DNA of 64,000 nt from an uncultured Methanomicrobiaceae archaeon (lineage in GTDB: Archaea; Halobacteriota; Methanomicrobia; Methanomicrobiales; Methanoculleaceae), in contig CAWGXH010000003.1 in NCBI GenBank assembly GCA_963826525.1, positions 320,001-384,000 of the forward strand, in the 5' to 3' direction. The position numbers and the translations under genes are program-made. Below the pieces are notes generated by a model that ran no database searches, had not been told where the DNA came from, and saw only the letters and a list, made by a program, of their open reading frames with translations. Shown piece after piece: positions 33,760-51,934 of this stretch (its first letter is position 1; every line of letters starts with the position of its first letter).

Positions 33760-34284
33760 TCACTTCTCTACCGTCTTCTTCCCGATCTTGGACGGTTCGA
33801 TCCTGATGGCGGCGTCGGGATATTCGCGGTTCAACTCCGATCCCTCGAAGAGGTGGTCGAGGAAGAGAGCGAGGCTCGAGATCTCCGAGTGCGGCTGCGT
33901 GGTGACCGAGACGTTGTAGTCGGCCATCGCGTAGACATCTCCCGGAACCTTCTCGGCCCCGACGACGACGAGCACTTTCTCGGCACTCCGAATCTCGCCG
34001 ATCACGTCGGTCATCCGGAGCCCGTACATGGTGAGGTGCACGACGGTGCCGCCGCCCGCCTTCCAGTCCTCGATGCACCCTTTCCACGCCACCTTATCTT
34101 CCGCAAAAAAGTCTCCCCCCCAGCGGTCGACCACATCACGGATGCTTTTCACGACGCCGGAGTCGTTCGCGGCGAGGTACATGCCGCGTGCCCCGAGCGC
34201 CCGGGCCGCAAGCCCGACGTGGGTCGTGACGCGCTGATCGCGTTCCGGCCGGTGCCCGACGCGGAGAATAGCAACTTCCGGCAT
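33760..34284 (-). CDS. trm56: tRNA (cytidine56-2'-O)-methyltransferase
   Basis: [29 protein letters not shown] and QPHSE motifs. Confidence 0.95.
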
Positions 34285-34562
34285 TATCGATCGTTCCTGG
34301 CTTTGATGACCCCGTTCTCGATGACGAACGGGAGGTCGTCCATGGCATTCTTCAGTCTGCACGACATCAGCGAGTCCTGAATGGAGAGCACCTGCAGGTG
34401 CTCCCCGCTCCTCCCGATGAGGTGATACCGCTCGAGCCGCTCGACCGAGGATGAAACGATCGAAAGGTCATGCCCGGTGCCGGCGGCGAGTTCGTCCGGC
34501 GTGATGCCGTTCTGCCCGGCGATCCGGTGATAGAGTAACCAGTCCAGGTCTTCTTCGCGCAC
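34284..34562 (-). CDS. Small winged-HTH (MarR-like) protein
   Basis: DWLLYHRI...ELAAGTG...[11 protein letters not shown]. Confidence 0.7.
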
Positions 34563-34682
34563 ATATAGTCTTTCTTTTACGGGTGCGATATAGTTTGTTC
34601 ATATGCGTCTCCGGAAGGCTTTTTCCGGCCGGAGTTCGTATGGAAAAGAGACGGAAACTTTCTGCAGGCACCGGGGATAAGG

Positions 34683-35078
34683 ATGACGACGGATTACTAT
34701 GAACTGGCGGCTCTTGCCGATAGCCTCTTTACGATCAGCGATGAAGACGAAGAGAAACTGGCCGGACTGCTCGACGAGCTCGACCCCGGCGTGCGCAGGG
34801 AACTGCTCTCCTCCGACCTCTTAAACGCATATCAGGTCTTTTACTACTACTTCCGCGAGACGCCGGACGAGCTCGTGCAGGACCGCCTGCTGCTGCACGC
34901 CGCATCCGATCTTGGAGGAGGTCTCCTCATCGAGGAGTACGATATCTACGAGGTCATCCTCGCCGTGAAGGACGAACTGCCGGTGATCGTCGTCACCGAC
35001 GGCGATGAGGAGACGGCACGGTTCTCCGGCCGCTCGGCATATCGCGAGATGATGGCGTACCTGAGCACGGGGCCGTGA
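34683..35078 (+). CDS. Acidic hypothetical protein
   Basis: 131-aa ORF with host codon usage. Confidence 0.7.
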   Translation: MTTDYYELAALADSLFTISDEDEEKLAGLLDELDPGVRRELLSSDLLNAYQVFYYYFRETPDELVQDRLLLHAASDLGGGLLIEEYDIYEVILAVKDELPVIVVTDGDEETARFSGRSAYREMMAYLSTGP

Positions 35079-35081
35079 CGG

Positions 35082-35798
35082 TCACAGAATCCCTCTCCCC
35101 GACGTGATCAGCCGGTCGCTGACGTCCGCCTGGATGATCTCGGGGAGAGAGCCCCACCGCATGACCTGCTCGCCGAGGATCGCGAGCACCCCGGTTACTG
35201 CCGATCCGGGGAGCGCGGCGAAGGCCTGGTCGTCGTCGGCGCCTATCCTGTTGCAGAGCCCGGTCGCCCAGGCGTCCGCCGCCGCAACGTCGGGTGAGAA
35301 GACGATGACGGCATCGGCGACGCCGAAACTGACGGACGGGCCGACGGTTGCGGACGACGTGCAGATTCCGAGGATCCCGTTCGGGGGCGGGACGACGAAG
35401 GCGAAACGGCTTGAGAGGGGCGAGTCTCCCGCGTAGATGCCGACCCGAACCGGGCGGTCGGCCATGAGCGCGATATCGCCGCCGTTGTCGACGATACCGA
35501 ACGCTGCCCCCGCTTCCTGCATCGCCTCGACCCCGGCCCACGCTATCGTCCCGGCGACCGCGGCCATCGGGCCGACGCCGGCGGCATACCCGGCACGCGC
35601 CATCCGGGTAACCGTCCTGGCTTCGGATGCCGGCAGGTAAGGCTCGAAGGTGGCGGCAAAAAAGGGATCGACGGTGATATGCCGCTCAAGCTCCTGCCGT
35701 GCGGCGAGCATCCCCTCTTTTGCAGCCTCAATATGAGGTTGCTTATCTCCGAGGATGGTCGCTATCGTCTCGCGAAACTGGAAATGTTCGCGGATCAT
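35082..35798 (-). CDS. UPF0280 / ApbE-like protein (COG2122)
   Basis: VGPMAAVAG, VDNGGDIA and CTSSATVGPSVSFG.AD motifs. Confidence 0.9.
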   Translation of the reverse strand: MIREHFQFRETIATILGDKQPHIEAAKEGMLAARQELERHITVDPFFAATFEPYLPASEARTVTRMARAGYAAGVGPMAAVAGTIAWAGVEAMQEAGAAFGIVDNGGDIALMADRPVRVGIYAGDSPLSSRFAFVVPPPNGILGICTSSATVGPSVSFGVADAVIVFSPDVAAADAWATGLCNRIGADDDQAFAALPGSAVTGVLAILGEQVMRWGSLPEIIQADVSDRLITSGRGIL

Positions 35799-36193
35799 TG
35801 CTGCTGGGAGAGCGCCTGGTGCGGGCATGCCCTGATGCACTTCCCGCAGAGGACGCAGAGCCCTTCCCGGAGGTGTATCCGCCATTCTTCATCGAAGTAG
35901 AAGACCTTCTGGGGGCAGATACCGATGCAGACGCCGCAGTCGATGCACTCCGCCTCGTCCCTGACGATGGCGTCCTCAAGCGAGCGGACGGTGATCCCCA
36001 TCTCTTCCATGCGCCGCCGGATGAGGTCTGCGTCGGCGTCCGGCACGTCGATTAAGACCTCGCCTGCCGTCGAGTTGATGTTGGCCTTCTCGACGTTGAT
36101 CAGAACGCCGGTCTCCTTGACGAGGCTCGCGATAACCGGTTGCCGGCCCGGGTCTTTCTCGCTCCTCCTGCAGAAGGTCAGCAGGAGTTTCAT
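35795..36193 (-). CDS. NIL-domain 2x[4Fe-4S] ferredoxin (homocysteine synthase partner)
   Basis: NIL-like N-terminus; CIDCGVCIGICP and CVLCGKCIRACP. Confidence 0.9.
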   Translation of the reverse strand: MKLLLTFCRRSEKDPGRQPVIASLVKETGVLINVEKANINSTAGEVLIDVPDADADLIRRRMEEMGITVRSLEDAIVRDEAECIDCGVCIGICPQKVFYFDEEWRIHLREGLCVLCGKCIRACPHQALSQQQ

Positions 36194-37700
36194 CGCTGCC
36201 ACCTCCCGCCGAAGAGCTTCCCGAGATCGATCGCCGAGAGGATGCCGACGACCCGGTTCTCCGTATCCACGACCGGGAGTGCGCTGATATTATTCTTCTC
36301 GAGTTTCTGCGCTGCGATATCCACGGGCTCCTCCGGGGTGGCCTTGATCACCCGCTTCGTCATGATATCCCGGACCAGACGGTGTTTGCCGTCGCCGACG
36401 ACGGCCTTCGAGACGTCGTAGGTCGTCACGATCCCGACCAGCACGCCGCTTTTGTCGAGAACGGGCAGGTGGTTCGTCTCCCCTTTGAGCAGTTTCCGCG
36501 CGGCCGTCCGTATCTCCTCGTCTTCGGTGATGCTGACGACCTTCTTGTTCATGATCTCCCTGAACGCGGGGTGCCCGTGCGGTCTCCCGCATCGGATGCG
36601 CTTTTCTGGTCGGGCTGATCCGCCGGGTGGGGAGCGCGAGCTCCATGCTCCCTGCCTCGATCCATCGTTTCAGTTCGGCCGCAACCTCCCGGGCTTTCCG
36701 GTAGCTCGAGAGCGACGAGGTCTGTATCGTCTCGCCTCCTATCTCGATGCTGCCGCTCTTCGAGCTCCGCATAACTGACTGTTTTGAGCGACGGGCGGTC
36801 GCGCCTCGGCACACTGTAGTCGATGACGTCGGTCAGGATATCCTCGTCCCGGACCGCCGTGCTCCTGACGGTTTCGATGTCGATGACCGGGATGGGGACG
36901 CCGACGCCCACGTAGAGGGTCACGCCGTATCCGTTCATCACCGCGGCACGCAGGTACTCCTGGCGCATCTGTTTCATATCCCCCGTCACCATCAGCGTCC
37001 CGAACCCGGCTCCGGCGGAGTGCTGCGTGCCTTCGCCGATAACCATCCCCTGCGCTCCACCGAGGAAGATCGGCACGCCGCTGCCGATGAGGCGGAACTG
37101 CGGGTCGTTCGGAAGCGGGGAGAGAGCCCCGGCGCCCGAGTAGGTGATGTTGCCGCACTTCGGGAGCAGCGTTCCCATGTAGGTTGAGAGGGTGCGGTCG
37201 GTCGTGTTTATCGCGGCGTTGTAGCGCTGGTAGGAGTTTCGGGGGTTGACCATGATCGCCTGGTTCAGCTCCTCGAGGAGGAGCTCGGTGGTGATCGTGC
37301 GCCGCGGGTAGCAGTCGGTCCCATGTGACGTCGCCCGGAGTTCGACGGTGTTCCCGGCAACCAGATCCTCAAGGACATGGGCGCCGCCGTACGTATCGCC
37401 GAGGCTCGCAGAACCCTGTGTCGCTCCCAGGTATGCATCGACCGCGGCTATCCCGCCGTAGGCCTCCACGTCGTTGAGCCAGACCCGCTGCATCCGTATC
37501 GGGGGATCGGCGTGCCCAAAGTTGAAGAACGCGCCTGACGAGCACATTGCCCCGAATGTTCCTGTCGTGACGACATCGACCTCGTTAAGCGCTCCCTCCT
37601 CCCCGAGTTCGTCGACGATGGCGGGCATCTCTTCGGCCGTGACGACCCGGACATTGCCATCGCGAATTCGGGAATTGATGATCTCGAGGGACTTTTCCAT
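36190..37700 (-). CDS. DUF39-CBS homocysteine biosynthesis protein (frameshifts near 36770 and 36560)
   Basis: VDVVTTGTFGAMCSSGA, PRNSYQ.Y and GEGTQH motifs; C-terminal CBS pair. Confidence 0.9.
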
Positions 37701-37792
37701 GCGTATATGTCCTCTCAAGAATATTTATAGGTGTTGGCTATTACTTTGGGTAATATGACGTCTTTTATCCCATGATTGCACAGGAGTACGTA

Positions 37793-38503
37793 ATGGAGAT
37801 TGGCAGGTTTATTCAGGAGATGGAACGAGTTGCCCCCCCGGGCCTCGCCGAGGAGTTCGATACGGGGCGGATCGGGCTCATCGTCGAGGGGAAACCGGAG
37901 ATCGAGACGGTCGCTACCGCTCTCGACGCCACGCCGGCCGTCGTCGACCGGGCCATCGCTCTCGGGGCGGATATGCTGGTCGTGCACCACACCCCCCTCT
38001 GGCAGCCGGTCAACGCTGTCAGGGGCGGGACGATGCGTCTCCTCCGCCGGATCCTCGGTGCCGACCTGAACGTCTACGTCATGCACACGAACTTCGACCG
38101 TGCCCCGGGCGGGGTCAACGATACGCTCGCCTCGATCCTCGGGCTCGAGAATGTCGCTCCCCTCTCGCTCGGACTCGTCGGGGATACGCACCTTTCTCTC
38201 GAGGAACTGGCACGGCGGCTTTCGCCCGGGGGCTTGCGGGTCTTCGGCGAAGCAGGCCTCCCGGGCAGGCTCGCCGTCGTCGGCGGAAGCGGGTTTGATC
38301 CGGTGATCATCGACGAGGCGGCGGCCCACGGAGCGGACGCATTCCTCTCCGCCGAGCTGAAGCACAGCGTCGCCCGTAGCGCCCCTATCCCCTGCATCGA
38401 GGCGACGCACTACGCCCTCGAGGCGCCGGCGATGGAGGCACTTGCATCCCGCATGAGCTGGCATTTTATCCCCGATCCGCCAAACGTGGTACTGCTGCCA
38501 TGA
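37793..38503 (+). CDS. Nif3-like dinuclear metal-centre protein
   Basis: ALDAT, VVHHT, MHTNFD, GGSG and THYALE motifs. Confidence 0.9.
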   Translation: MEIGRFIQEMERVAPPGLAEEFDTGRIGLIVEGKPEIETVATALDATPAVVDRAIALGADMLVVHHTPLWQPVNAVRGGTMRLLRRILGADLNVYVMHTNFDRAPGGVNDTLASILGLENVAPLSLGLVGDTHLSLEELARRLSPGGLRVFGEAGLPGRLAVVGGSGFDPVIIDEAAAHGADAFLSAELKHSVARSAPIPCIEATHYALEAPAMEALASRMSWHFIPDPPNVVLLP

Positions 38504-38817
38504 ACGAACTATGGCCGGGTCTCGACCGGGAGTGCATTCTCGATGCGGAGTATCGCGACCGGATCGTCCGGGAATACAAAGAGCGCGGGCGAAAAGCGCT
38601 CCGGGCGGTGGAAGAAGGAAGGGTGAAACGCTACCTCGACTTCTTCGTCGTCGTCGGGCGAAGCGACGAATACGTCGTGGAGAGCGACTTCTGCACCTGC
38701 AGTGATTTCGTCTTTCGCGGCTGCGAGTGCTGGCACATTCTCGCGGTGCGGATAGCGGAAGAGACGGGGCTCTATGAGTCCTTCGACCTCTGGTATCAGG
38801 ACACATGGAAGCCGTAA
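38500..38817 (+). CDS. SWIM zinc-finger protein
   Basis: FCTCSDF...CWHILAV. Confidence 0.85.
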   Translation: MNELWPGLDRECILDAEYRDRIVREYKERGRKALRAVEEGRVKRYLDFFVVVGRSDEYVVESDFCTCSDFVFRGCECWHILAVRIAEETGLYESFDLWYQDTWKP

Positions 38818-38879
38818 TCGGCCGAGTCCAAACACATTTATCGTTCGCAGAAGAATAGATTATTAATACGTGATTCTCA

Positions 38880-41622
38880 ATGCTCGAAGAAGAATATACG
38901 CTTGACTATTTTAAATCCCAGGGCCTTGAGCGGAAGGTATGCAAAAGGTGCGGGGCGGCGTTCTGGACTCGGGACCCGGAACGGGAGTTCTGCGGAGACG
39001 CTCCTTGCGTACACTACGACTTCATCGGCAGCCCGGTCTTCACCCCCCACACCGTCGACGAGATGCGCGAAGCATTTCTCTCCTTCTTTGAGCGCCACGG
39101 CCACACCCGGCTCGAGCGCTATCCGGTGGCCGCCCGGTGGAGAGACGATATCTACCTGACGATCGCGTCCATCGCAGACTTCCAGCCCTATGTGACGAGC
39201 GGCGTCGTCCCGCCGCCGGCAAACCCGCTGACCATCTCGCAGCCCTGTATCCGGCTCAACGACCTCGACTCGGTGGGCAGGTCCGGCCGCCACCTGACGC
39301 AGTTCGAGATGATGGCGCACCACGCCTTCAACACCAAAAACGAGGAGATATACTGGAAGGACGAGACGGTCGCTCTCTGCGAGGAGTTCATCGCATCTAT
39401 CGGCGGCGATCTCGACGCCGTCACCTATAAAGAGCACCCGTGGATGGGCGGCGGGAACGCAGGGCCTTCCGTCGAGGTGCTCATCGGCGGGCTCGAGGTC
39501 GCGACGCTCGTCTTCATGAACCTCGGGCGGCAGAAGACCGCTCACCCGCCGGTCGAACTCGGAGGAGTTCCCTACTATCCGATGGATCTCCGTATCGTCG
39601 ATACCGGATACGGGCTCGAACGGTTCGTCTGGGCGTCCCGCGGTTCGCCGACGATCTACGATGCGGTCTTCCCCGAGATGGTGAGCCGCCTGATGCACTC
39701 CGCCAACCTCGAACACCTGCTCGATAACGACGAGTTCACGACGATCCTCGGGATGAACGCCCGGTTCGCCGGCGTCATGGATATCTCCGGGCCGAACCTG
39801 GCCATCCTTCGAAGGAGGGTGGCGGAGGCGATCGACGTTCCGATCGAGAAGCTCGAACGGATGATCGGCCCGATCGAGAAGGTCTACGCCATCGCCGACC
39901 ATACCCGGTGCCTCGCCTATATGCTCGGCGACTGCATCGTCCCGTCGAACGTCCGCGAGGGATACCTCGCCCGCCTGGTGCTCCGCCGGACGCTCCGGAT
40001 GATGAACGATCTTTCGATGGAGGAGGATATCGCCGACCTCATCGAGCAGCAGATGCGGACCGTGGGGATGGATGCCTTCGAGCAGGACCTCGACGTTGTC
40101 CGGGAGATCGTTGCGAACGAGGTCGGCAAATACGCGACCACGCTCGAACGCGGAACCCGTACCGTCCAGAAGCTCGCGAAGACCTACACGCAGAAGCACG
40201 AGCCCGTCCCTCTCGCCGAGGTGATCACCCTCTACGATTCTCACGGCATACCGCCCGAGACGGTCAGAGAGGTCGCCGCGGCCGAGGGAGCCGTCGTCGA
40301 GGTGCCCGACAATTTCTACTCCCTGATCGCCGATCTCCACTCCGAGTCGCAGAAGGAGGTAGGAGCGGATCCGCTCGCCGCGTACCGTGAGCGGGTAGAT
40401 TCACTCCCGCCGACGAAGAAACTCTTCTACGACCAGACGGCGGATATCGAGTTCGAGGCGATGGTTCTCGACTACTTCGACGGCTACATTGTTCTGGACC
40501 AGACCCTCTTCTACCCGGAAGGCGGCGGTCAGCCGTCCGATACCGGCACCCTCGTCACCTCGGACAGCATGGTCCGGATCGACGAGGCGATCAAGGTCGG
40601 CGAGGTTATCCTGCACCGCACGAGAGGCGGGGTCCTGAAACGGGGAGAGCGGGTCAAGGGCATGGTCGACGAGGAGCGGCGCTGGTCGCTGATGCGGCAC
40701 CACACGGCGACGCACGTCCTGCTCCACGCCGCGAAGGAGGTGCTCGGAGCACACATCCACCAGGCCGGTGCCCAGAAGGGAAGCGAGACCTCACGGCTTG
40801 ATATCAGGCACTACCGCCACATCACCCCCGAGGAACTGAAGAGGATCGAGGTCCAGGCGAACCGTATGGTCATGGCCGACCTTCCGATCTATATCCGCAC
40901 CGAGGAGCGCACCCGGGCGGAGCAGAAGTACGGGTTTACCCTCTACCAGGGAGGCGTGCCTCCCGGACGGGAGATCAGGACGGTGCAGGTCGGCGGAGAC
41001 GTCCAGGCATGTGCGGGGACGCACTGCCGCACGACCGGCGAGGTCGGGCCCATCAAGATCGTCACCGTCGAGCATATCCAGGACGGTGTCGAGCGGATCG
41101 TCTTTGCTGCGGGTGTGGCAGCGATCCACTATATGCAGCACGTTGACGCTCTCCTCAGCAGCGCCGCCGACGTGGTGAGCGTGCAGCCGGAGTATCTCCC
41201 GGCGACCGTGACCCGGTTCTTCTCGGAGTGGAAGGAGCAGAAGAAGGAGATCGAGCGGCTGGCGCAGAAGGTCGTCGAGCTCGAGAAGCAGAATCTCGAA
41301 GGGGAGGTCGTCGGCGGCGTGCAGATCGTGGTCAAACGGATCGATGCGGCCGCCAAAGAGCTCGTCGCGCTTGCGGGCAGCATCTCGGATGCGGGCGGGG
41401 TCGCCCTCCTCGTCGGCGTGAACGAGAAAGCGACCGTCGTTGCGACGTCCGGGAACCCGGCCGTCAACGCGGCGGATATCGTCAGGGAAGTCTCGGGGAT
41501 CCTCGGCGGCCGGGGCGGCGGGAAACCGAACCTCGCACAGGGCGCCGGGCCCGATACTTCCCGCGTCGAGCAGGCGCTCGAGGCTCGGGCGAAAGCAGAT
41601 CATCGAAGCACTCCATGGCTGA
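38880..41622 (+). CDS. alaS: Alanyl-tRNA synthetase (frameshift near 41585)
   Basis: TIASIADFQP, QPCIR, FEMMAHH, DTGYGLER, HHTATH, CAGTH and GGG..AQG motifs. Confidence 0.97.
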
Positions 41623-42292
41623 AGACGTTGTTGTACTCCAATCCGGCGACGAGCGGGCGCAGAGGATCGCCAAAGCCATGGCGAGCCAGACCGCCAACGA
41701 TATGATCCAGGCGTTCGGCGGCAGATCGATGACCTCGACGGAGGTCGCCGGACACCTCAATATCCCGGTGACCACCGCGACCTACCATATCGAGAACCTG
41801 CTCGACGCCGGGATCCTCGAGGTGGCCGATACCCGCTGGAGCAAGAAGGGGCGCGAGGTCAAGATCTACGGCCTCACGAACCAGGTGCTGATCATCGCTC
41901 CGCCGGTGAGCGATCTCCGGTCGGTCCTGCAGAAGTACACGGCGCTTTTCGGTGTCTTTCTCATTATGAGCATGGCGCTTTTCGGCGTCCTCCCCGTCCT
42001 GCTGCCGGACATCGGCGTGCCGGACGACGGCGGCATGCTCTCGACCCGGGGGTCGTACGCGCCGTCTATCGCAGGCGCCGGGGAGAATGCGGAAAAGGTC
42101 GTCAGTACGCCGGCGCCCGTCGACCAGGCGTCCATCGTCCCGCCGGTTCCCTTCGCATCCCTGACGATCCACGATCTCGTGATGGCGTTCTTCTTCGGCG
42201 GGTGCCTGGTGCTGTTTGCCCTGATGCTCTACGAGCTCCACTACTGGTGGCGCTCGTCACCCGGCTACGCCCTCAGGAGAAAAGACGAGTAA
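41615..42292 (+). CDS. ArsR-type HTH regulator with two C-terminal TM helices
   Basis: IAKAMASQTA...YHIENLLDAGI...WSKKGREVKIY; two hydrophobic segments. Confidence 0.85.
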   Translation: MAEDVVVLQSGDERAQRIAKAMASQTANDMIQAFGGRSMTSTEVAGHLNIPVTTATYHIENLLDAGILEVADTRWSKKGREVKIYGLTNQVLIIAPPVSDLRSVLQKYTALFGVFLIMSMALFGVLPVLLPDIGVPDDGGMLSTRGSYAPSIAGAGENAEKVVSTPAPVDQASIVPPVPFASLTIHDLVMAFFFGGCLVLFALMLYELHYWWRSSPGYALRRKDE

Positions 42293-42459
42293 TACTTTTT
42301 TCAGGCTACCGTCGCTCGTTTCCGCTCCCTGACGGGAGATCCGCCCTCTCACGACAGCCCTGATGCGGGTGCTCCAGCCGGCATTGCCCTTCACATTCCG
42401 CAGGTCTCCAGTCAGATATAGTCCAGGAGTTACGCAGTTGGTGCCGTGTTGCATAGAGC

Positions 42460-42491
42460 CCATCAAATCATGACCCTCTCTGATTTGATGG
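42460..42491. repeat. Perfect 11-bp inverted repeat
   Basis: CCATCAAATCA-N10-TGATTTGATGG. Confidence 0.8.
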
Positions 42492-42516
42492 TCCTTCTTC
42501 TCTTCCACGGGTACCC

Positions 42517-44217
42517 TCCGGCAGCGCCTTCATATCTTCAATTCCGAGTCCCTCTTTAATCTATATCGACGGCGTCTACCGCGGTAAGCGCACGCGCCTC
42601 TCGTTCTCAACAACATCCTCGCAGGGAACCACACGATTGAAGCAAGGAAAGATGGGTACACTCCCGCTACCCAGAATCTACGGATCTTTGCCGGGAGTAC
42701 GTCATATGCTCGCTTATATCCGGTTTACGCTGGTGAAAGCGGCACAATTATTGTAAACTCCTCACCCCCCCGGCGCAACCGTATCCGTCGACTGCATACC
42801 GGTCGGATTTACATCAGAGGAGACCGGCATCTTTACTCGAAACTACGTCACCGTCGGATCGCACCTCGTCGACGTGGCAAAAGAAAATTATAGCGCATAT
42901 AACGAACTCGTTTACGTTGCAAACGGCACAACGGTCGTCGTAAATGCGTCTCTCGATCTGGCGGACGACGGCGACGGTCTCAACTTCACCTGATGAAAAT
43001 GGCTTTAGAGACGGCTTCGGCAACTGGCACGTCACCGATCCGAACCTCATCGACACCGACGGCGACGGCCTCTCCGACGGCTACGAGGCGGGATATCTCA
43101 TCACCGTGGGCGGAAAGGATACCACAAGCAGCGGAGCGACCCGAACCTGGTGGATACCGACGACGACGGGCTCGACGATTTCATGGAGGATTACCTGCGC
43201 ACCGACCCGTATGATCCCGAAACCGATCACGATCTCATCAAAGACGGGGAAGACGACGAACCTCTTGTCCCCATATATCTCCGGTATGCAACGGATCGGA
43301 TTCGTGACGAGATTGCGCTCCGGCTCGGTGCCGTCTTCGGAGAAACCGGCCTGAAGGGCGAAGCATGTAACGGATTGATTGGCGGAGACGTTTTTGCATC
43401 CACGCCGGCGTACGTTGCCGGCTGGATCATTTCAGGCCTCGCGGCAATTGGAGACGTCCGTGATTTCCTGTATGCGGCATCGCAATTCGATACTATCGGG
43501 GCAACACTCACCGGGCTGGGTATTGTCCCATACTTCGGCGATTGCGAAAAGACTGCCGCCGATATCGCAAAATGGATCGGAAAATATCCTGAAGGCATAC
43601 GTCCTCTGGCGAAATTGTTGGTCGAACAGAGAATCATTGATATTTTCGACGAGAGTGACCGGCTGAAGATCATCGACGACTTCTTCCCGGCGCGGGCGGA
43701 CGGCGTGAAGGTCGGGACGTATCTGAACACGAGAGTGATGACCTCGGTGTGGACGACCTTGCGAAGATGATGGGCCGCGGCGCCGATCTCTCCGACGTTG
43801 TTCATGTTATCAAGGTTGGAGATGATGCGATACCGCTTACGGCGACGAGGGAAGGCCATTATGTCGCTCGTCACGTTACCGGAACGGAAGGCGTTGATGA
43901 CCCCACCTCGTTTTTCCCGACGACAGAACGCGTCATTAGAAATGGCGAGCCGAACCCGGGTACTTCGTCAATGACGCCGGAGGCTATGCAAGCACAAATC
44001 ATCGACTGGATCAAGGAAGCACTACCTCGGGATCCAACTCTAACTGAGTGGCCAAAACAAAAGAAAATCGTAACTTTGGATCTTGAACCTGAAGTTGCGG
44101 GAGTTGGACGAATACAAATAGTTGTTCAAGGAGATACTGGAGTACATACAGTCATTCCAATACATGGCTCTCAGGTTTATAAGGTACGCTAACGGCCAAT
44201 GGTACCCAACACGGTAG
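42517..44217 (+). pseudogene. Polymorphic toxin gene, 5'-truncated and frameshifted: 2x PEGA, DxDxDG repeats, pre-toxin region, putative RNase C-terminal domain
   Basis: Stitched frames read SSIPSPSLIYIDGVYRG..., VNSSPPGATVSVD..., DTDGDGLSDGYE, DTDDDGLDD, IGDVRD...LGIVPYFGD, GHYVARH..TSFFP, IQIVVQGDTGVHTVIP. Confidence 0.7.
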
Positions 44218-44226
44218 GAGATAACA

Positions 44227-45276
44227 ATGTTCAGAATCGTCTGGGATAAAGAGGATGTCGAGCGGGGAATCAAATCCGGAACCGGCGAAGCCGGCCCCCT
44301 CGGTTTTTTAACGCCTATACAGGTTTACGCGAACGGCGTTGATATGTCGGGGCTTGAAGCAGCTCCAAAAGGAAACATTACCCATTTTGATGGTCTCTTC
44401 TTAGAATTCTTCTACATATTCCATTCCATAGACCCGGAGAACCTGCAGGAAGAGAAGTTCCACATGAGTTCAAGCGTGAAAAACCGTGTTGATGGTGGGA
44501 GTTTCAATCTCTACGTCTATCATGATAAAGAATCTGACATCCTGACTTTGAAATACCGCAACTTCATGCATCCCGAATACCGTATACTGGAGATCCCGTT
44601 GAAAGATTTCACGGAAGGAATCCTTCAATCGGCAACCGAAATGCTTGAAGGGGTATTACGGGTCGCTCCGGAATTTGAGGGTGATGTTAACTATATTGTG
44701 CTAAAAGAGGATATGGAACTCATTCGAAACTGGTATCAGGAGCGGTACGGAACAGCGACCGTTCCACGTCCTCTTATTAAGAGAGGATCTTCCACGAAGA
44801 CGAAAGAGGGGCGCATCCGCTGGATCGGCGTTGAGGATGCTGCCGACCCGGGGATGATCGACTGCGTGCAGAAGATCCTCGACATCACGTATCCCGACGA
44901 TTACCTGGCGTGCGTACAAAAATACTCTCTGGGGTTCCCCTACCCGTACAACATCATCGTCAATGAAAGGCTCAAGGGGGGGAGGAGCCAGTTTGTCCGC
45001 CTCCGTGGTTTTGATCCGGAGAAACCGATGTCGTACGTATTAACCCTCTACTACGCCTTAAATTGCCCGGCACCGGGCATCAATGCTTATCTGCCGGACA
45101 ACGTTGTCCCCTTTGCCGATGCTTTCGGTGACGACAGACTCTGTTTCGATTACCGGGAAGGTTTCCCTCCGAAAGTGGTGGACCGGAAATCTCACGAACT
45201 GGACCCAGATAGATCGGTGATACTTCTCTGCAACTCATTTACGGAGTTGTTTGAGATCATGGAACGGTGCGAGTGA
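44227..45276 (+). CDS. Immunity protein: unknown N-domain fused to SMI1/KNR4 (SUKH) domain
   Basis: GGAG RBS; YPDDY, VVPFADAFGDDRLCFDY and LCNSFTELF motifs; directly downstream of the toxin tip. Confidence 0.8.
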   Translation: MFRIVWDKEDVERGIKSGTGEAGPLGFLTPIQVYANGVDMSGLEAAPKGNITHFDGLFLEFFYIFHSIDPENLQEEKFHMSSSVKNRVDGGSFNLYVYHDKESDILTLKYRNFMHPEYRILEIPLKDFTEGILQSATEMLEGVLRVAPEFEGDVNYIVLKEDMELIRNWYQERYGTATVPRPLIKRGSSTKTKEGRIRWIGVEDAADPGMIDCVQKILDITYPDDYLACVQKYSLGFPYPYNIIVNERLKGGRSQFVRLRGFDPEKPMSYVLTLYYALNCPAPGINAYLPDNVVPFADAFGDDRLCFDYREGFPPKVVDRKSHELDPDRSVILLCNSFTELFEIMERCE

Positions 45277-45284
45277 ATGGCTGA

Positions 45285-45745
45285 ATGACTGGAAGAATGA
45301 GGTGTACCGTGAAAGATATTCAGTGGAGCAATACTGAGGAGAGACGGAACGACTTTGATGAACTGATTCCCTGCATCGAGAAAGCATTTCGTCTGACCCT
45401 GCCGGACGATTTTAAACTCTGTGCGATCGAAAACGGTGGAGGGAGCCCTGTTCCGTGTCGCTTCGACGTCGGGGACGAGAAAGGGAAGACGCTCGTGAGA
45501 CTGTTGAGTCTCGACCCGAGATCGAAGGACTTTTTCTGGAAGCATTATGCAGCCGTGGGATGGTATCCGCGAGGTTATGGCCGGGATCGTACCCGATCGC
45601 GCAGGAGCGGGAAGGCAACTACATTAGCCTGGATTACGAGAAGGGTTTCCCGCCGAGGATCGCGTATGTGATCGGAAGTGTGAGACCCCGGCGGAAAGTT
45701 GTCATATCGGACTCCTTTACGGCGTTTCTGGAGACGCTTTACTGA
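45285..45745 (+). CDS. SMI1/KNR4 (SUKH) immunity protein (frameshift near 45570)
   Basis: IEKAFRLTLPDDF...NGG, YPIAQEREGNYISLDY and ISDSFTAFLETL motifs. Confidence 0.8.
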
Positions 45746-45769
45746 AGCGGAACCCGACGGTGTAGGTGA

Positions 45770-45901
45770 GAGAGGAGAATCCCCACTGGACTGTATTATC
45801 GTGAGATGGTTCCGCCAAACGGTCAGTATATCAGGGTTGCAACGAATCCCGATGGGAGGATCTTATCGGCATACATGGTCAAAAAACTGCCAACGGTGTG
45901 A
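45770..45901 (+). pseudogene. Orphan toxin C-terminal tip fragment
   Basis: Frame with no N-terminus: ...NGQYIRVATNPDGRILSAYMVKKLPTV*, ending 5 nt before the next ATG. Confidence 0.5.
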
Positions 45902-45906
45902 TTCCT

Positions 45907-46374
45907 ATGGAGACTGAAAAAATTAATTTTTGGATCAAGCAGGGATATTTCCACCTCTCATACGGTGAAGTATCTCTCACGCGGAGTAAAAGTGGAAACG
46001 ATCGGATCATGGATTTTTGCGACTATCTGATGGAGGCAATCCACGATGATTGCATCCCACTCCTCCTTCGCGGAGAGACCTGCAGGATCATGCTCCTTGA
46101 CGATCCGCATGTCCTGTTTTTTGTCCCGAAAGGGGATATGGTCACTATCATCCTCGAGTCCGAAGTTACGGAATGGTTTGAACCCAGGAGCGAGTTTACG
46201 GCCCCCATGAAAGAATGGTTCAGGGCGGTACAGCAGGTAACTCTCGACCTGATTCAGGAGATGCAGGATTTTCCGGGGAAATACTATAAACTCGTGCCGG
46301 TTTCATCAATCATCGAGAAATATCATATCACCGAGAAGGTGCTTCGGGAAGCGGGATACCTGAAGGAGGGATAG
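45907..46374 (+). CDS. Putative immunity protein
   Basis: AT-richer ~155-aa ORF right after the orphan tip; FTAPMKEW..AV resembles LEIPLKDF..GI in the 44227 protein. Confidence 0.6.
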   Translation: METEKINFWIKQGYFHLSYGEVSLTRSKSGNDRIMDFCDYLMEAIHDDCIPLLLRGETCRIMLLDDPHVLFFVPKGDMVTIILESEVTEWFEPRSEFTAPMKEWFRAVQQVTLDLIQEMQDFPGKYYKLVPVSSIIEKYHITEKVLREAGYLKEG

Positions 46375-46489
46375 AATTTTTACATCTGCCCGGCAGGACA
46401 CCGGATTGAGCGGACAGCGGAAAGGAGTATGGGAACAGTTCAATTTCCTCCCTGTAAACGAATAACAAACCTCCAAGGATAGGCATCGC

Positions 46490-47272
46490 ATGAAACCGAA
46501 TGCACCAGAGCGCCGGACTCAATCCGGCACCGACAAAAAACCGGGAAGCCATGGGAATCACTGGGGATGCGTCACGCAGTCCACGGACGAGATCATCCAA
46601 TCGGTGGAGTGGGCGTTGAAGGAGGCGGAAACCGCCGACGTCCGTGAACGGAACGGTCGCGAGATCGCCGCGTACATCCCGGAGTCCCGTTCTCTCACGA
46701 CGTGTGCCATAACCCTCGATCGATCGGTCTCTACCGGCTACCCGGTCGCCGTGGACGGCGTCGTCCACGAGGTGACGGTACAGCGCGTCGAAGAGTGGGC
46801 GAACGAACTCGAAGGACAGGTGGTCGGCTCGATCGGCGACGCTGCCCTGGCTTTCTTCGACACCCGGTACTACCGGAACGGCGATCGTTACCGGGAGGGG
46901 GACAGGCATCTCTTCGCCCTCGCTGCCTTTGCCTACGTGCTGCAGAAGGCCGAACCCCGCACGATCACGGATGCGGAAGGGAAGGAGCACTCGACCCGGA
47001 ACATGGCTGCATACCGCCCGTTCCCGCAGGGCGACGTCGACGACTTCGCGTATCAGTCGCTGGTAAAGAGCGTCGAAACCGTTTCGTTCTGCGGAAAGAC
47101 CGTCTACCGACTCACGGTCACGCTTTTTCGGCTGCCGGATGAGGGCGGCGATTACCGCGATGTCGACATCACGCTGTATGCCGCTGAACATGTGACCGGG
47201 GGCTACGCTCCCCGCGTGGGTGACGATATCATGGGAATTCTCTGGCTGCAGGGCTCCCTTTCTCCCGGATAA
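46490..47272 (+). CDS. Hypothetical protein in the immunity cluster
   Basis: 260-aa ORF with GNHWGC near the N-terminus and P.VGDDI.GILWLQG at the C-terminus. Confidence 0.75.
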   Translation: MKPNAPERRTQSGTDKKPGSHGNHWGCVTQSTDEIIQSVEWALKEAETADVRERNGREIAAYIPESRSLTTCAITLDRSVSTGYPVAVDGVVHEVTVQRVEEWANELEGQVVGSIGDAALAFFDTRYYRNGDRYREGDRHLFALAAFAYVLQKAEPRTITDAEGKEHSTRNMAAYRPFPQGDVDDFAYQSLVKSVETVSFCGKTVYRLTVTLFRLPDEGGDYRDVDITLYAAEHVTGGYAPRVGDDIMGILWLQGSLSPG

Positions 47273-47300
47273 CTGAAGAGCAGCGCAGGGGTCTCCTCTC

Positions 47301-47410
47301 GACGACACGTATCGGGATACCGACGACCCCGATCCGCTGACCCGTGCAGCAACCGACGAGATCAACCTCGCCAGGATCGCGCGCGAGATCCTGGCCGGGG
47401 CGACCTATAG
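47301..47410 (+). pseudogene. Fragment of a second toxin gene (repeat/pre-toxin junction)
   Basis: DDTYRDTDDPDPL...IAREILAGATY resembles DHDLIKDGEDDEPL...IRDEIALRLGAVF in the main toxin. Confidence 0.4.
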
Positions 47411-47431
47411 GCTGCCCGACGGCTCCTTCTC

Positions 47432-47762
47432 CTGGCTGGTGACCGTTTCGCCAGATTGTTCCAGTTCCCTCCTCAACCGAAACTCGGTCATAGAATAGAT
47501 GAAGAGGCAGAGCACCATGATCATCGCTAGCGCCTGGATGCGTTAAAAAATCGGGGAACAGATAGAGACGCCGTTCGATGAACCCGAGGCCGTTGAGCAC
47601 CAGTGCTTTGGCAACCTGAGTATGAGTGAGGTGGTGACGGGTTTTGAAGATCGCGCAATTGATAACCCCGGCAATACCGAGGGAATCGTAGGCATCGGCG
47701 ACGATGCCGAGGTGACCGGCAGAGAGGATCGATTCGTCATCGAAACCGCCGATCAGGGGCAT
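47432..47762 (-). pseudogene. IS1634-family transposase remnant with a large internal deletion
   Basis: DUF4277-type N-terminus (GHLGIVA...LVLNGLGFIERRLYLFPDF) joined at ~47545 to the C-terminal RIQALAMIMVLCLFIYSMTEFRLRRELEQSGETVTSQ. Confidence 0.88.
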
Positions 47763-47913
47763 ACCGATTGATTTCGGCTAAAAGTACAAGGATCGTGCGG
47801 TTTTCAATTATTCAAAGGAAGGATTCGGTTACTGCGGATGATGGGTTACCCGGTAGCGGACGTGATTATGCCCGCCGTCACGGCAGAACGTGAAAAAAGA
47901 AGAGGTTGTTCGT

Positions 47914-49209
47914 TTACATCCTTTTGCGGACGACGAAGATCAGCCCGAAGACTGCAAGAGCACCGAGTGCCGCGAAGGGCAGTGCACCGGACTGGGTCGG
48001 GTTCGCGATCGGGTTTAAGGATGCCGAGACGTAACTGGTGCTGCCGGCATTCACCTGCACGCTGTCCGACCAGTCCTGGTACCCGGAGACCTGCACTTTT
48101 ACCGTGTGCGATCCGGGGGAGACATCGGTCAGGGTCAGGGGGGTAATGCCCTTGTAGGCGTTGTCAAGGTAGATGTCCGCACCTGCAGGCGAGGACGAGA
48201 CCGATATCGAACCGGTTGGGCCAGGCGGGAGCGGGGTCATCGCCGCGGAGACGGGGGTGGTCGTGCTGGACTGGACAGCAACGGACGTCGAGTAGTCCTG
48301 GTACCCGGAGAGCGACAGCGCCACGGTGTGGGTTCCCGGGGTGACGCCGCTGACGACGAGCGCCTGGGTAGCGGAGGTCTGTCCCTGGTAGACACCGTCG
48401 ACGGAGACGCTTGCACCGGTGGGTGACGAGCTGACGGAGATATAACCTGGGTTCTGATCGGGAATCGGGCTCATCTGCGCGTTCACGTACGAGGTGACGC
48501 CGGGGGAGACCGTAACGGTCGACTTCCAGTCATAGAAGCCGCTCAGGTCGAGCTCGATGACGTGGCTCTTTGCGGAGACGCTCGAGAGGGTCAGGGGAGT
48601 CTTACCCTTGTAAGCGGCATCCATATAGACGTAGGCACCCGACGGGTTCGAGGAGACGACGACCGCCCCCGGCTGCGCGATGGCCTGCAGCGGGAAGAGG
48701 ATGGTCGACGTCTGGCCTGCACTCACCGAGACGGTCGTCGAGTAGGGCTGGTAGCCGGGCAGGTCCGCTTCGATCTGGTAGGTGCCGGGGGTGATGCTGC
48801 TGATCGTCAGCGGGGTGACGCCGCGGTAGTTGCCGTTCAGGTAGATGGCAGCTCCCGAAGGCGTCGAGGTTGCATAGATCGAACCGCTGGTTGCCGTCGG
48901 GTTGAGCGTGACGTAGACGTCGACGGTCTCTCCTGCTGCCGGTTCGCCCGGAAGGCTTCCGGCTGCCGATTTGTAGCCCGACATCTCGAGCCGGTAGGTC
49001 TGGTAGGGGCTTCCCGTCGTGTAGACCGGTACCGAGAGGACACCCTGCGCGATCTGGCCCTTGTAGCCGCCGTCGAAGTAGACGGATGCACCGTCCACGT
49101 TACAGTGAACGGTGTACCAGCCTTCGCTCCCGCCGATACTCGCTGCCGAGGCACCGGCACAGAGGACGAGCAGGGCGAGTCCGAGAATTATAGATCTGGT
49201 TGTTTTCAT
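47914..49209 (-). CDS. Multi-PEGA-domain cell-surface protein
   Basis: Signal peptide; five S.P.GA..Y.DG.Y.G.TP-type repeats; C-terminal QSGALP + TM helix + RKR. Confidence 0.92.
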   Translation of the reverse strand: MKTTRSIILGLALLVLCAGASAASIGGSEGWYTVHCNVDGASVYFDGGYKGQIAQGVLSVPVYTTGSPYQTYRLEMSGYKSAAGSLPGEPAAGETVDVYVTLNPTATSGSIYATSTPSGAAIYLNGNYRGVTPLTISSITPGTYQIEADLPGYQPYSTTVSVSAGQTSTILFPLQAIAQPGAVVVSSNPSGAYVYMDAAYKGKTPLTLSSVSAKSHVIELDLSGFYDWKSTVTVSPGVTSYVNAQMSPIPDQNPGYISVSSSPTGASVSVDGVYQGQTSATQALVVSGVTPGTHTVALSLSGYQDYSTSVAVQSSTTTPVSAAMTPLPPGPTGSISVSSSPAGADIYLDNAYKGITPLTLTDVSPGSHTVKVQVSGYQDWSDSVQVNAGSTSYVSASLNPIANPTQSGALPFAALGALAVFGLIFVVRKRM

Positions 49210-49382
49210 GCTTCTCTCTCCGAAAAATACAATTATGAGGTATCGTTTTTGCTCTATTATTCCTTTCTATTAATTCTCTTGCAAATTCGTGCTTAATACC
49301 GGATATTGAGGGATTTGCTCGCAGATCTGAGGCAACCCGGGTATTGTATCCGCCCCCGCTCTTGCATCGGCTATATGGGCAT

Positions 49383-49423
49383 GTGGTGCAGGAACAAATG
49401 AAAACAGTAATTATCTGCACCAC
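49383..49423 (+). promoter_or_regulatory. 9-bp inverted repeat enclosing a BRE/TATA-like element upstream of the RHH-acyl-CoA synthetase
   Basis: GTGGTGCAG (49383-49391), 23-nt spacer containing GAAAACAGTAATTAT, CTGCACCAC (49415-49423). Confidence 0.55.
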
Positions 49424-49436
49424 TGACCTGTTCTGC

Positions 49437-51288
49437 ATGGTGCGATATTCGGTCACTATGCACGATGCCCTCGCCGGGAGGATCGATGAGGCGCGTGAAA
49501 CCCGCGGTCTCTCCCGTTCGGAGTGGATCAACGAGGTCTGCAGATCCTTCCTCGACGGTGCACCCACCTTCGGCGACCAGCGAGCGATCGCGGCCCCACC
49601 CGGCAACGGGGGTTCGACTCCTCCGCAGAAGCATGCCATGGGCGATTACGATGAGACCTGTGCGAACTTCTCGATCCACGTCCCGAAGTTCTTCAACTTC
49701 GGGTTCGACGTCATCGACCGGTGGGCTGAGACCGACCGGAACAAACTCGCCATGATCTGGGTGAACCAGGAGGGAGAGGAGAAGAAGTACTCCTTCCGGG
49801 ATTTGAAGAACCTCTCGAACGGAGCGGCAAATATTCTGCTCAAGTACGGGATCATGAAGGGCGACCGCGTCATGCTTATGCTCCCCCGGGTGCCGGAGTG
49901 GTGGATATTCGTCCTCGCCCTTACGAAGCTCGGTGCGGTCTTCTGCCCCTGCCCGACGATGCTGACGCCGAAAGACATCAAGTACCGGGTCAATGCCGGG
50001 AAGTTCAAGATGGTCATCACGAACAGCGAGAACGCGGAGAAGGTCGATGCGATCTGCGACGAGTGCCCGACCCTGACGAAGCGGTTCATGGTGGACGGTG
50101 CACGGCAGGGCTGGGCGAGCTACCCGCACGAGATCGACTATCCCGCCCGGGTATCGCACCACTCGGTGAGCATGCCCGTCGAGAGGAAGACGAAGGCCAC
50201 CGATCCGATGCTGATCTACTTCACCTCGGGGACGACCGGGCAGGCGAAGATGGTGCTGCACGATCAGAGCTACCCGCTCGGCCATATCGTGACCGCCGGA
50301 CTCTGGCAGGACGTCAACGAACACGATCTCCACTTCACCTTCTCGGACACCGGGTGGGCAAAGTGTGCGTGGGGCAAGATCTTCGGACAGTGGATCCAGG
50401 GTGCCTGCCTCTTCATCTATGATATCAAGGGACGGTTCGAGGCGACGGAGCTCCTCCCCCTCATCGAGAAGTATGAGGTCACCACCCTCTGCTGCCCCCC
50501 GACGGTCTACCGGATGCTGATCCTCGCCGACCTCGACAAGTTCGATTTCCGCGACCTGCGCCACTGCTGCAGTGCGGGCGAGCCGTTAAACCCCGAGGTG
50601 ATCCGGGTCTGGAAGGAGGGCACGGGCCTGACTATCTACGAGGGCTACGGGCAGACCGAGACGGCCTGCTGTGTCGCGACGTTCCCGTGCATGAAGAATA
50701 AGCCGGGCTCGATGGGAAAACCGTCCCCGGGATGGGATGTCGAACTCCACGACGACGACGGCACCCCGGTCGGTGTGCACAAGGAAGGAAGGATCGCGGT
50801 CAAGCTCAATCCCCGGCCGCCGGGGCTCTTCGTCGAGTACCCTGGACAACCCCGAGGCGAACCGGGAGTCGTTCGTGAACGGCTACTACTATACGGGCGA
50901 TAAAGCCTACATGGACGAGGACGGCTACTTCTGGTTCGTCGGCCGTGACGACGATGTGATCAAGTCGTCCGGGTACCGGATAGGCCCCTTCGAGGTCGAG
51001 AGCGCACTCCTCGAGCACCCGGCGGTGCAGGAGTCTGCCGTCGTCGGGTCGCCCGATCTCCTCCGCGGGATGATCGTCAAGGCGTTCGTCGTCTTAAACT
51101 CGGGATTCGAGCCCTCCGAGTCGCTGGTGAAGGAGCTGCAGGGGTACGTGCGTCGCACGACCGCCCCGTACAAGTATCCCCGGTCGATCGAGTTCGTGAC
51201 GGAACTGCCAAAGACCCTCTCCGGCAAGATCCAGCGGAACGTCCTCCGGGAGCGGGAACTGCAGAGAAGCGCGAACAACCAGGAATAA
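49437..51288 (+). CDS. AMP-forming acyl-CoA synthetase with N-terminal ribbon-helix-helix domain (frameshift near 50840)
   Basis: [32 protein letters not shown], then [42 protein letters not shown] and PKTLSGKI. Confidence 0.9.
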
Positions 51289-51325
51289 CTCTTTTTTCCG
51301 GGAAAAAAGGATATGATCGGCTGCT

Positions 51326-51934
51326 CTAACAGATCGAGCTCGATGAAGTTCTCGAAGAAGCCGCAGCCCCACGGCGCCGCTCTTTTCGGGGTGGAACTGC
51401 ACGCCGTAGGTGGTGCCGCTCCTGATGGACGAGGCGAAGGGGCGGATGTACTCGGTCGAGGTCAGCATGTATGCGGGGGTGGTCGAGGCGTAGAAGGAGT
51501 GGACGAAGTAGACGTAACTCTCGCTTTTGACCCCCTCGAAGAGCGGGTCGGCCGCTTCGATCCGGATGGTGTTCCAGCCCATGTGGGGCACTTTCATGCC
51601 GGGTACGACCGGGAACCGTTTCACCTCGCCCGGCACCAGCGCAAGGCCGCGGTGGATGCCGTGCTCCTCGCTCGAGTCCATGAGCATCTGCATCCCGAGG
51701 CAGATCCCGAGGAGCGGCACCTCGCGGCTCGCGGCGAGCACCGTGCCTTTGAGGTCGCCGAGCATCTCCATCCCTTCGCGGAAGGCGCCGACCCCGGGGA
51801 GGACGATACCGTCTGCTGAAGCGATGACCTCCGGGTCGGCGGTGATGGTCGCGTCCGCTCCCGCCCGCTCAAGCCCCCGGAAGACGCTTCTGAGGTTTCC
51901 GACACCGTAATCAATTATAGCCTATCTTCTTCAT
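51326..51934 (-). CDS. hisH: Imidazole glycerol phosphate synthase glutaminase HisH (frameshifts at both ends)
   Basis: IDYGVGNL, LPGVGAF, GICLGMQ, PHMGWN, YFVHS and QFHPEKSG motifs. Confidence 0.93.

Follow-up and report, generated by a model that had tools for sequence, protein, structure and literature searches.

A probable orphan cassette of a Methanomicrobiales-specific polymorphic toxin family, truncated and disrupted in frame, on a strain-specific island of a Methanomicrobiaceae archaeon

What is encoded by a stretch of archaeal DNA in which the reading frame changes six times within 1704 nucleotides, and what history could have left it there? The stretch, positions 42514-44217, lies in a window of 64,000 nucleotides from an uncultured Methanomicrobiaceae archaeon (assembly GCA_963826525.1, contig CAWGXH010000003.1, positions 320,001 to 384,000 of the forward strand), and all coordinates below are those of the window unless stated otherwise. 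A first-pass annotation made from the letters alone had stitched several frames into one polymorphic toxin with a PEGA stalk, calcium-binding repeats, a pre-toxin segment and a putative ribonuclease (RNase) tip. We compared the locus with related genomes, protein families and predicted structures, and conclude that it is probably an orphan cassette, truncated at its 5' end and broken in frame, from a polymorphic toxin family restricted to the Methanomicrobiales, for which a mechanism and a history can be proposed.

Three-frame translation and a frameshift-aware alignment to an intact relative (P0005) gave one continuous plus-strand reading of 42514-44217, with the same end coordinate as in the stitched toxin of the first-pass annotation. 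Its frame changes near 42598, 42774, 42982, 43118, 43738 and 44184, and along it two PEGA domains are followed by calcium-binding repeats of thrombospondin type 3 (TSP3), a helical pre-toxin segment and the tip (Table 1). Both of the expected PEGA domains were recovered, the second by a Pfam match at 42757-42990 (PF08308, E 5e-7, 30.0 bits against a cut-off of 20.8) and the first, which a frame change splits, as two subthreshold halves of 16.5 and 18.4 bits covering profile positions 2-28 and 25-60. The repeat piece scored 20.1 bits with TSP3_bac (PF18884), under the cut-off of 25, while the same region in relatives reached up to 80.7 bits. DxDxDG repeats are indeed present, two canonical and two degenerate copies of DxDxDGxxD in the stitched reading, so that the earlier "several" was slightly generous. 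The remnant has no start codon and no signal peptide, and its alignment by tblastn to the full-length relative P0003 begins at residue 1407 of 1944, which confirms the suspected 5' truncation for this assembly; about 1400 N-terminal codons of the full-length relatives (1776-1975 aa) are missing. Consequently an N-terminal secretion or trafficking domain is absent from the window copy, despite the signal-like N-termini of those relatives. The tip DNA is AT-richer, as had been noticed by eye, with a GC content of 0.47-0.49 across 43850-44449 and 0.44 just beyond the tip, across 44300-44749, against 0.61-0.70 in the flanks.

The relatives define the family to which the remnant belongs. A query of 43009-43770 returned 12 matches at E ≤ 0.001 among 3500 candidate longer proteins, and in five of the 12, with lengths of 1120-1944 aa (P0003, P0007, P0008, P0010 and P0011), the protein opens with a hydrophobic signal-like sequence ending in A-x-A, as judged by eye and not by a predictor. 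Full-length relatives extend to an open frame of 1975 aa (locus L024), and precomputed Pfam matches place beta-helix, PKD, PEGA and TSP3 domains in their stalks. Behind the same GDxRD ... GxxPxxGD segment the C-termini differ: sorted by eye, 34 segments 3' of pre-toxin matches fell into tip A, the class of the window (4), a tip-B superfamily (14), tip C (7), tip E (2), tip D (1) and short or degenerate pieces (6), counts that are not independent, several loci being near-duplicates from related genomes. At least five tip classes share one pre-toxin segment, and none of the tips matches a curated family in Pfam or NCBIfam. In the typical locus a single long open frame (1376-1975 aa) precedes shorter cassettes, each some 300-460 aa in length, and such arrays of a full-length gene with orphan tip/immunity cassettes occur in five genomes (G039, G031, G021, G022 and G020), one of which (G039) holds 15 pre-toxin matches. 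The window copy is itself such an orphan cassette. Homologues with the same stalk and different tips had been anticipated, and an invariant C-terminus lacking adjacent immunity genes, which would have spoken against a toxin, is not what the family displays.

The distribution of the family is narrow. Pre-toxin matches were found in 16 of 54 other genomes of the window's taxonomic family, all within one genus (16 of its 48), and in 22 of 400 other genomes sampled across the class, which fall into four families of a single order and 6 of 45 genera; the source names of the relatives point to Methanoculleus and Methanofollis. A separate contig of 8638 bp, labelled at its source as part of a Massilibacteroides metagenome-assembled genome, carries near relatives of the cassette (P0001, 83% identity) and of the immunity gene (P0034, 72%), and is probably a mis-binned archaeal contig and not a bacterial occurrence. 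The genome of the window itself (G000) holds one further toxin copy, on contig C4 at about 1290580-1297300, with a full-length layout, a signal-like start, a TSP3/PEGA stalk, the pre-toxin segment and a different, unclassified tip. In this paralogue the frame changes at least 10 times and two in-frame stops occur; the genome therefore seems to be without any intact toxin copy. An E-V-K motif had made its tip a candidate PD-(D/E)xK nuclease, which was dropped, the best Pfam match being a non-significant Tox-MPTase5 (E 0.018). In the G021 locus (L023, contig G021:C49) the full-length toxin gene also changes frame once, at about 7604-7710 in an acidic stretch before the pre-toxin segment, giving a 1431-aa and then a 309-aa frame.

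The pre-toxin segment is the signature of this toxin family. Residues R69, D70 and G95 are invariant across 33 sequences. At E ≤ 0.1 no Pfam family was found on 43009-43770, and known pre-toxin domains (PT-TG, PT-VENN, PT-HINT and others) were found neither in six relatives at E ≤ 1 nor in NCBIfam. An AlphaFold model of the segment is all-helical with a mean predicted local distance difference test (pLDDT) of 68.6, and falls below 60 in the region of the conserved motifs. Hydrophobicity is moderate, and a clear transmembrane hairpin was rejected on a 19-residue Kyte-Doolittle mean that peaks at only 1.39.

Tip A (147-157 residues, numbered here from 43749) forms a compact family. We found 16 proteins (clusters) at E ≤ 0.001 among the 1.84 billion representatives scanned, and all 16 sit behind the pre-toxin segment where the protein reaches that far, P0017 being a C-terminal fragment. 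Across 19 sequences, conservation reaches 90% or more at H37, R41, H42, G45, T53, F56 and P57; the residues singled out by the first-pass annotation, H-x3-R-H and T-x-x-F-P, are thus nearly invariant in the family. The candidate active-site residues H37, R41, H42 and T53 would suit metal-independent acid-base catalysis, a catalytic role that is predicted. The AlphaFold2 model from the family's own alignment is confident (pLDDT 94.9, predicted template modelling score 0.89) and consists of an N-terminal beta-hairpin, a helix carrying His-x3-Arg-His, another long helix and, at the C-terminus, a sheet of three strands. We compared this model with 48,161 chains by VIA-align, in which Z values below 8 can come from common arrangements; three chains had Z ≥ 5, namely 7m5f_C (Z 7.0, root-mean-square deviation 3.6, 101 residues aligned), 5e3e_B (Z 5.8) and 9v8i_B (Z 5.2). 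With Z values under 8, the assignment of the fold therefore rests on the consistency of the match list and not on a single score: the 20 best rows are all toxin-immunity or toxin-antitoxin entries, among them CdiA C-terminal toxins (CdiA-CTs), YxiD, ParE, RelE, colicin D, MafB and BrnT.

A link between two tip classes points in the same direction. In a profile comparison by hhalign, tip A and the tip-B superfamily are homologous (96.7%, E 3.9e-10, 137 columns, both histidines aligned), part of the score stemming from the shared linker. Tip B in turn shows subthreshold similarity to EndoU_bacteria (E 0.0022, 18.8 bits, cut-off 25.3) and, in 3 of 10 members, to PBECR3 (best E 0.0046). The feature-based Atlas returned leads below 0.9 for tip A, namely RNAse_A_bac (0.86), EndoU (0.85) and Ntox35 (0.84). 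Taken together, the structural matches, the conserved residues and the link to tip B suggest a BECR/EndoU-like fold for tip A, which would form a new family and is most likely a metal-independent RNase of that kind. The same guess had been made from the sequence of the tip, and the predicted fold, the residues and the subthreshold links of tip B support it.

Immunity-type genes follow the tip directly, as had been noted. The first of them begins 9 nt past the stop of tip A and encodes a protein whose residues 206-343 match SMI1_KNR4/SUKH-1 (PF09346, E 8.8e-11, 42.9 bits, cut-off 25.4), reportedly a domain of polymorphic-toxin immunity proteins. The N-terminal domain of about 195 residues has no Pfam or NCBIfam family, forms a family of 10 clusters and reaches only unnamed clusters in the Atlas (0.90-0.94). 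Homologues of this N-domain lie 3' of all four complete tip-A copies in relatives, at about 45 nt, and are lacking behind a truncated fifth tip-A fragment. They occur alone, fused to SUKH or as a tandem duplicate, so the immunity domain is itself modular; the duplication was seen in L026 (G039:C2, 8520-9695, minus strand), within one 392-aa protein. Modelled together, tip A and the N-domain gave an interface score (ipSAE) of 0.87 against 0.00 for the best of three controls, a mark that 58 of 80 solved complexes attain, as do 2 of 110 mismatched pairs; this calibration is only rough for a model built, as here, from small custom alignments. Three runs agreed in at least 86% of contacts, the pLDDT of the partner was at least 84, and the confident interface covers tip residues 41-42 and 50-53. 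The predicted placement of the N-domain over R41/H42 is the mode expected of an immunity protein that blocks an active site, and the product of the 44227 gene would be the cognate immunity protein that neutralises tip A.

Comparison with two genomes of the same genus showed that the whole cassette lies on a strain-specific island. G052 matches 34000-42301 and 47881-52000 at 89-90%, and a mere 264 bp separate these stretches; G051 has a gap of 862 bp at the position of the island, and the flanks match the two genomes at 81-90%. Within the island the GC content ranges from 0.44 to 0.57, as against 0.61-0.70 in the surrounding DNA. Fragments related to the transposase remnant at the right edge are present on several contigs of G051. 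Contamination or mis-binning was rejected, conserved archaeal genes flanking the island on a contig of 668 kb. To the right, the island adjoins a native surface protein of 431 aa (47914-49209, minus strand) that consists of several PEGA repeats, bears a signal peptide as well as a hydrophobic anchor at the C-terminus, and belongs to the conserved flank that G052 shares.

Within the island the pattern of identity is mosaic. At the nucleotide level, 43035-43814, with the pre-toxin segment, is 85% identical to L023 and 45791-47316 is 90% identical, while the part between 43814 and 45791 (tip A core, immunity gene and second SUKH gene) has no L023 counterpart and the tip B core stands there in G021. 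Moreover, 45791-45901 still encodes the last ~33 residues of tip B and its stop, and the two genes that follow encode products sharing 95% and 86.5% identity with those encoded after tip B in G021. P0005 shows the opposite pattern, with identities of 39% in PEGA, 71% in TSP3, 52.5% in the pre-toxin segment, 47% in the linker and 92.6% in the tip core. An immunity protein, P0029, is 84% identical over the N-terminal immunity query; the longest contig is 57,605 bases for both P0005 and P0029, hence they probably share one contig. From these opposite patterns we conclude that tip and immunity gene pass jointly from one stalk to a different one, the left junction lying in the conserved linker, and that a tipA-immunity-SUKH module appears to have displaced an older tip B, leaving its 3' stub and its immunity gene behind.

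Table 1. Features of the toxin locus and its island in the window ("." marks no strand).
Positions	Strand	Feature	Basis
42302..47880	.	Strain-specific lower-GC island, 5.6 kb, containing the whole cassette	Comparison with G052 and G051
42514..44217	+	5'-truncated polymorphic-toxin gene remnant (probable), six frame changes	Alignments to P0005 and P0003
42514..42975	+	Two PEGA domains, the first broken near 42598, the second beginning after the change near 42774	PF08308; P0005 alignment
42976..43254	+	TSP3 (DxDxDG) calcium-binding repeats, changes near 42982 and 43118	TSP3_bac, subthreshold; relatives
43255..43737	+	Pre-toxin segment: moderately hydrophobic stretch, GDxRD motif, G-x-x-P-x-x-G-D motif	Conservation; G021 match
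43738..44217	+	Linker and tip A, predicted to be an RNase toxin domain of BECR/EndoU-like fold; frame breaks near 43738 and 44184	
44227..45276	+	Putative cognate immunity gene, intact, 349 aa: new N-terminal domain (~1-195) and SUKH-1 (206-343)	Pfam; synteny; complex model
45285..45745	+	Second SUKH-family immunity gene (putative), broken once in frame between 45561 and 45590	Both pieces match SUKH_6 and SMI1_KNR4 (Pfam)
45791..45901	+	Tip B 3' stub: last ~33 codons and stop	L023 nucleotide homology; C-terminus of G021 tip B
45898..46374	+	Orphan immunity-type gene for tip B, intact, 158 aa	95% aa identity to the gene after G021 tip B
46490..47272	+	Conserved 260-aa gene closing these loci	Recurrence in L023 and L026
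47229..47762	-	Transposase remnant, right island edge	Pfam DUF4277, E 6.3e-15

The remaining genes of the island fit the same arrangement. An intact 151-aa homologue of the second SUKH gene occupies the same place in L024. The 158-aa gene has no Pfam or NCBIfam family, and its position would suit an immunity function. The 260-aa gene, likewise without a Pfam or NCBIfam family, has a host-like GC content (~0.62-0.65) and copies with 83-87% identical products at the distal end of L023 (9121-9900) and L026 (7713-8492); perhaps it is one more immunity gene, or else it marks where the locus ends.

The disrupted frames of the toxin part raise the question whether the gene decays or the assembly errs, and here several observations weigh against our reading. 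Relative to G052, the 8.25-kb left flank of the window's genome carries four single-base insertions (36561, 36762, 37792 and 41585), none in a homopolymer; the first two are absent from G051 also and break a conserved minus-strand gene (36290-37718), and that at 41585 alters the last residues of alanyl-tRNA synthetase (3' end of alaS). Such insertions suggest either indel noise of the assembly or many real lesions in the strain. In the right flank an acyl-CoA-synthetase-like gene (49344-51288, plus strand) appears as overlapping open frames, 49344-50903 and 50737-51288, pointing to one more conserved gene with a broken frame. Insertions of this kind in conserved genes mean that some or all of the toxin breaks could be errors, and the six changes could then be consensus errors of a noisy long-read assembly in a cassette intact besides its 5' truncation. 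Such a cassette, clean and silent, would be an orphan tip/immunity unit poised for recombination into a full-length gene, and no decaying pseudogene. The genome's completeness of just 87.6% in 16 contigs, the similarly broken C4 paralogue and the orphan cassettes of relatives, open and free of internal stops, all favour such an explanation. Against it, 6 of the 11 frame breaks in 12,777 nt fall in the 1704-nt toxin and the other 5 are spread over 11,073 nt of flank and of the remaining island genes, which makes the breaks about 8 times denser in the toxin (binomial P 0.0014), while the other island genes have the same local coverage, and five of the six toxin breaks lie outside long homopolymers. 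Outside reads contribute little: in one public run only, X1, labelled a soil metagenome, were 6% of the sampled words present, 6 of 30 bins were covered, and the only two identical contigs span 42678-42815 and 45589-45782, the rest being short TSP3-repeat matches from other organisms. The former contig agrees with the assembly across the break near 42774, the only one of the six sites so covered, and may derive from the very sample that was assembled. Programmed frameshifting was rejected, the six shifts being of mixed sign and at unrelated sequences, with relatives open in one frame. Four of the five downstream genes are intact, the exception being the second SUKH gene with its one break. On balance the evidence favours true decay of the toxin part, and we regard a wholesale assembly artefact as rather unlikely, if a matter of real weight.

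The function of the tip was weighed in the same way. Foldseek found no PDB match for tip A at E ≤ 0.001 (best E 0.3), and the structural scores are modest, a Z of 7.0 lying within the range that unmatched models often reach. By sequence, tip A has no Pfam match at E ≤ 0.1; none of its 19 family members matches a toxin family in Pfam when searched per member to E ≤ 10, including EndoU_bacteria (PF14436), PBECR3 (PF18812) and RNAse_A_bac (PF18431), NCBIfam offers no toxin family, and the best sequence-profile match in the PDB has an E of 0.13. Enzymatic activity and toxicity of tip A are predictions, the calibration of the complex model is rough, as said, and the pre-toxin segment, with no known family and a weak model, has a role that is therefore a guess; by analogy with the pre-toxin and entry domains of contact-dependent inhibition (CDI) systems it might serve release or membrane passage. 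A tip with a BECR/RelE/ParE-like fold that is no nuclease, acting as a ParE-like gyrase poison or as a binding module, would agree with this lack of a nuclease family and with the ParE toxins among the structural matches (Z 3.6-4.4; rows 7, 8, 11, 13 and 14). The best matches, at Z 5.1-7.0, are nevertheless RNase toxins of CDI systems and YxiD, His-x3-Arg-His and Thr are nearly invariant and line up with the invariant histidines in tip B, which has the weak EndoU/PBECR3 links, and the R-H-V-x-G-T and T-x-x-P motifs resemble those of a CdiA-CT of Yersinia kristensenii (Ykris) described as a proven RNase (PMC5435912); we therefore judge a non-nuclease tip improbable. Still more remote, to our mind very improbable, is a variable surface adhesin or a self/non-self recognition system like VARTIG of the Thermococcales, with the downstream genes as partners and not antidotes. 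Stalks built of PEGA, PKD and TSP3 domains typically belong to surface and adhesion proteins, weak NCBIfam matches to CglD and MtsD were seen, the toxicity of the tips is a prediction and the VARTIG layout is similar according to PMC8416519. The variable tips are, however, small and enzyme-like with toxins as structural neighbours, tip and downstream gene move jointly between different stalks, and the predicted interface covers the conserved His/Arg site. In addition, the SUKH-1 domain matched by Pfam is characteristic of polymorphic-toxin immunity.

The preferred reading, a cassette of a polymorphic toxin family, allows a mechanism and a history to be proposed. Full-length members would be exported by a Sec signal peptide and would display, on the cell surface, a long stalk of beta-helix or PKD, PEGA and calcium-binding TSP3 repeats. 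The helical pre-toxin segment would mark the site at which recombination swaps the C-terminal tip, the tip itself being the exchangeable toxin, which would have to enter target cells. There tip A is predicted to cleave RNA without a metal, H37 and H42 transferring protons and R41 together with T53 stabilising the transition state, and in protected cells the N-domain of the 44227 protein would sit over R41/H42 and block the active site. In the lineage of the window, a tipA-immunity-SUKH module would have recombined in behind the pre-toxin segment and displaced tip B. The copy left here is unable to yield a secreted toxin. Its toxin part seems to be in decay and most of the downstream genes stay intact; the locus might thereby protect against the toxins of neighbours or serve as a silent reservoir of tips. 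As a bolder and distinctly tentative proposal, the Methanomicrobiales may possess a class of contact-dependent inhibition of their own, in which a Sec-exported, envelope-displayed giant without a dedicated secretion machine delivers RNase tips, released by the pre-toxin segment, into neighbouring archaea, and strains and genera trade modules with one another; on this view the window would preserve the trace of an exchange, after which the weapon was lost and the antidotes were kept.

In anaerobic digesters and wetlands, methanogens of this order play a central part, and there strain-level warfare could shape which strains persist. To our knowledge, antagonism between archaea is almost unexplored experimentally. 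The locus and its relatives offer a concrete methanogen system with a defined stalk, a recombination boundary, several small tips without a curated family and matching immunity domains. They indicate that these archaea keep and shuffle swappable tips much as bacteria do, the polymorphism and the cassettes being seen and the toxin action predicted. Furthermore, tip A and the N-domain (147 and 195 residues), with a confident predicted model and interface, are a compact candidate for a new RNase-inhibitor structure, and the window is a natural record of tip displacement, retention of orphan immunity genes and probable toxin decay.

How does this family compare with systems already described? Its closest structural counterpart is the CdiA-CT of Serratia marcescens BWH57 (7M5F), which its depositors assign to the BECR fold with a candidate active site of H47, E51, H52 and R89 (PMC8616854). 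This chain is the best match of tip A (Z 7.0, 101 residues aligned, 18% identity), and the spacing of its H47/E51/H52 equals that of H37/R41/H42. As in CdiA-CT/CdiI systems, an exchangeable C-terminal toxin follows a conserved pre-toxin boundary, an immunity gene lies directly 3' and orphan cassettes are present. In contrast to CdiA, the host is an archaeon without an outer membrane, there is no CdiB two-partner secretion and there are no FHA repeats, and the boundary is the helical GDxRD ... GxxPxxGD segment in place of a VENN motif; sequence similarity to the BWH57 toxin is undetectable, and the immunity proteins are unrelated. The second-best match (Z 5.8, tip model residues 32-139 against chain residues 168-281) is the CdiA-CT of Y. 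kristensenii (5E3E, PF18431), reported in PMC5435912 as a proven RNase that needs His175, Arg186, Thr276 and Tyr278 and whose immunity protein binds over the active site. Its R-H-V-G-K-T with His175 and T-G-Y-P with Thr276/Tyr278, as given by the primers of that paper, resemble R41-H42-V-T-G-T and T134-V-I-P137 of tip A, and its family, RNAse_A_bac, is also the best Atlas match (0.86, a lead only). Unlike this toxin, tip A has a second conserved histidine, H37, and I, F or Y at the position of Tyr278.

Among archaea, Zhang et al. 2012 describe polymorphic toxin systems as rare and report classical stalked toxins with cassettes, of the RHS type, in Methanosarcina acetivorans (PMC3482391). The loci described here resemble Rhs/WapA systems, including those of M. 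acetivorans, in a main gene with downstream orphan tip/immunity cassettes and in tips displaced by recombination; they differ in having no RHS/YD repeats or shell, the stalk consisting of PEGA, TSP3, PKD or beta-helix domains, and the family is confined to one order among the genomes searched. Contact-dependent toxin delivery of the kind proposed here has been predicted in many archaea by Makarova et al. 2019 (mBio 10:e00715-19), as summarised in PMC8416519, according to which none of these systems had been characterised; the latter paper also describes the VARTIG modules of the Thermococcales, similar in overall layout. We found no paper joining "polymorphic toxin" with "Methanoculleus", in a comparison that did not extend to the catalogue of Makarova et al. 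2019. Hence, as far as sequence comparison can tell, this is a known kind of system, like bacterial CDI, Rhs and WapA, built with stalk repeats and a boundary motif of its own, and with tip and immunity domains that form new families.

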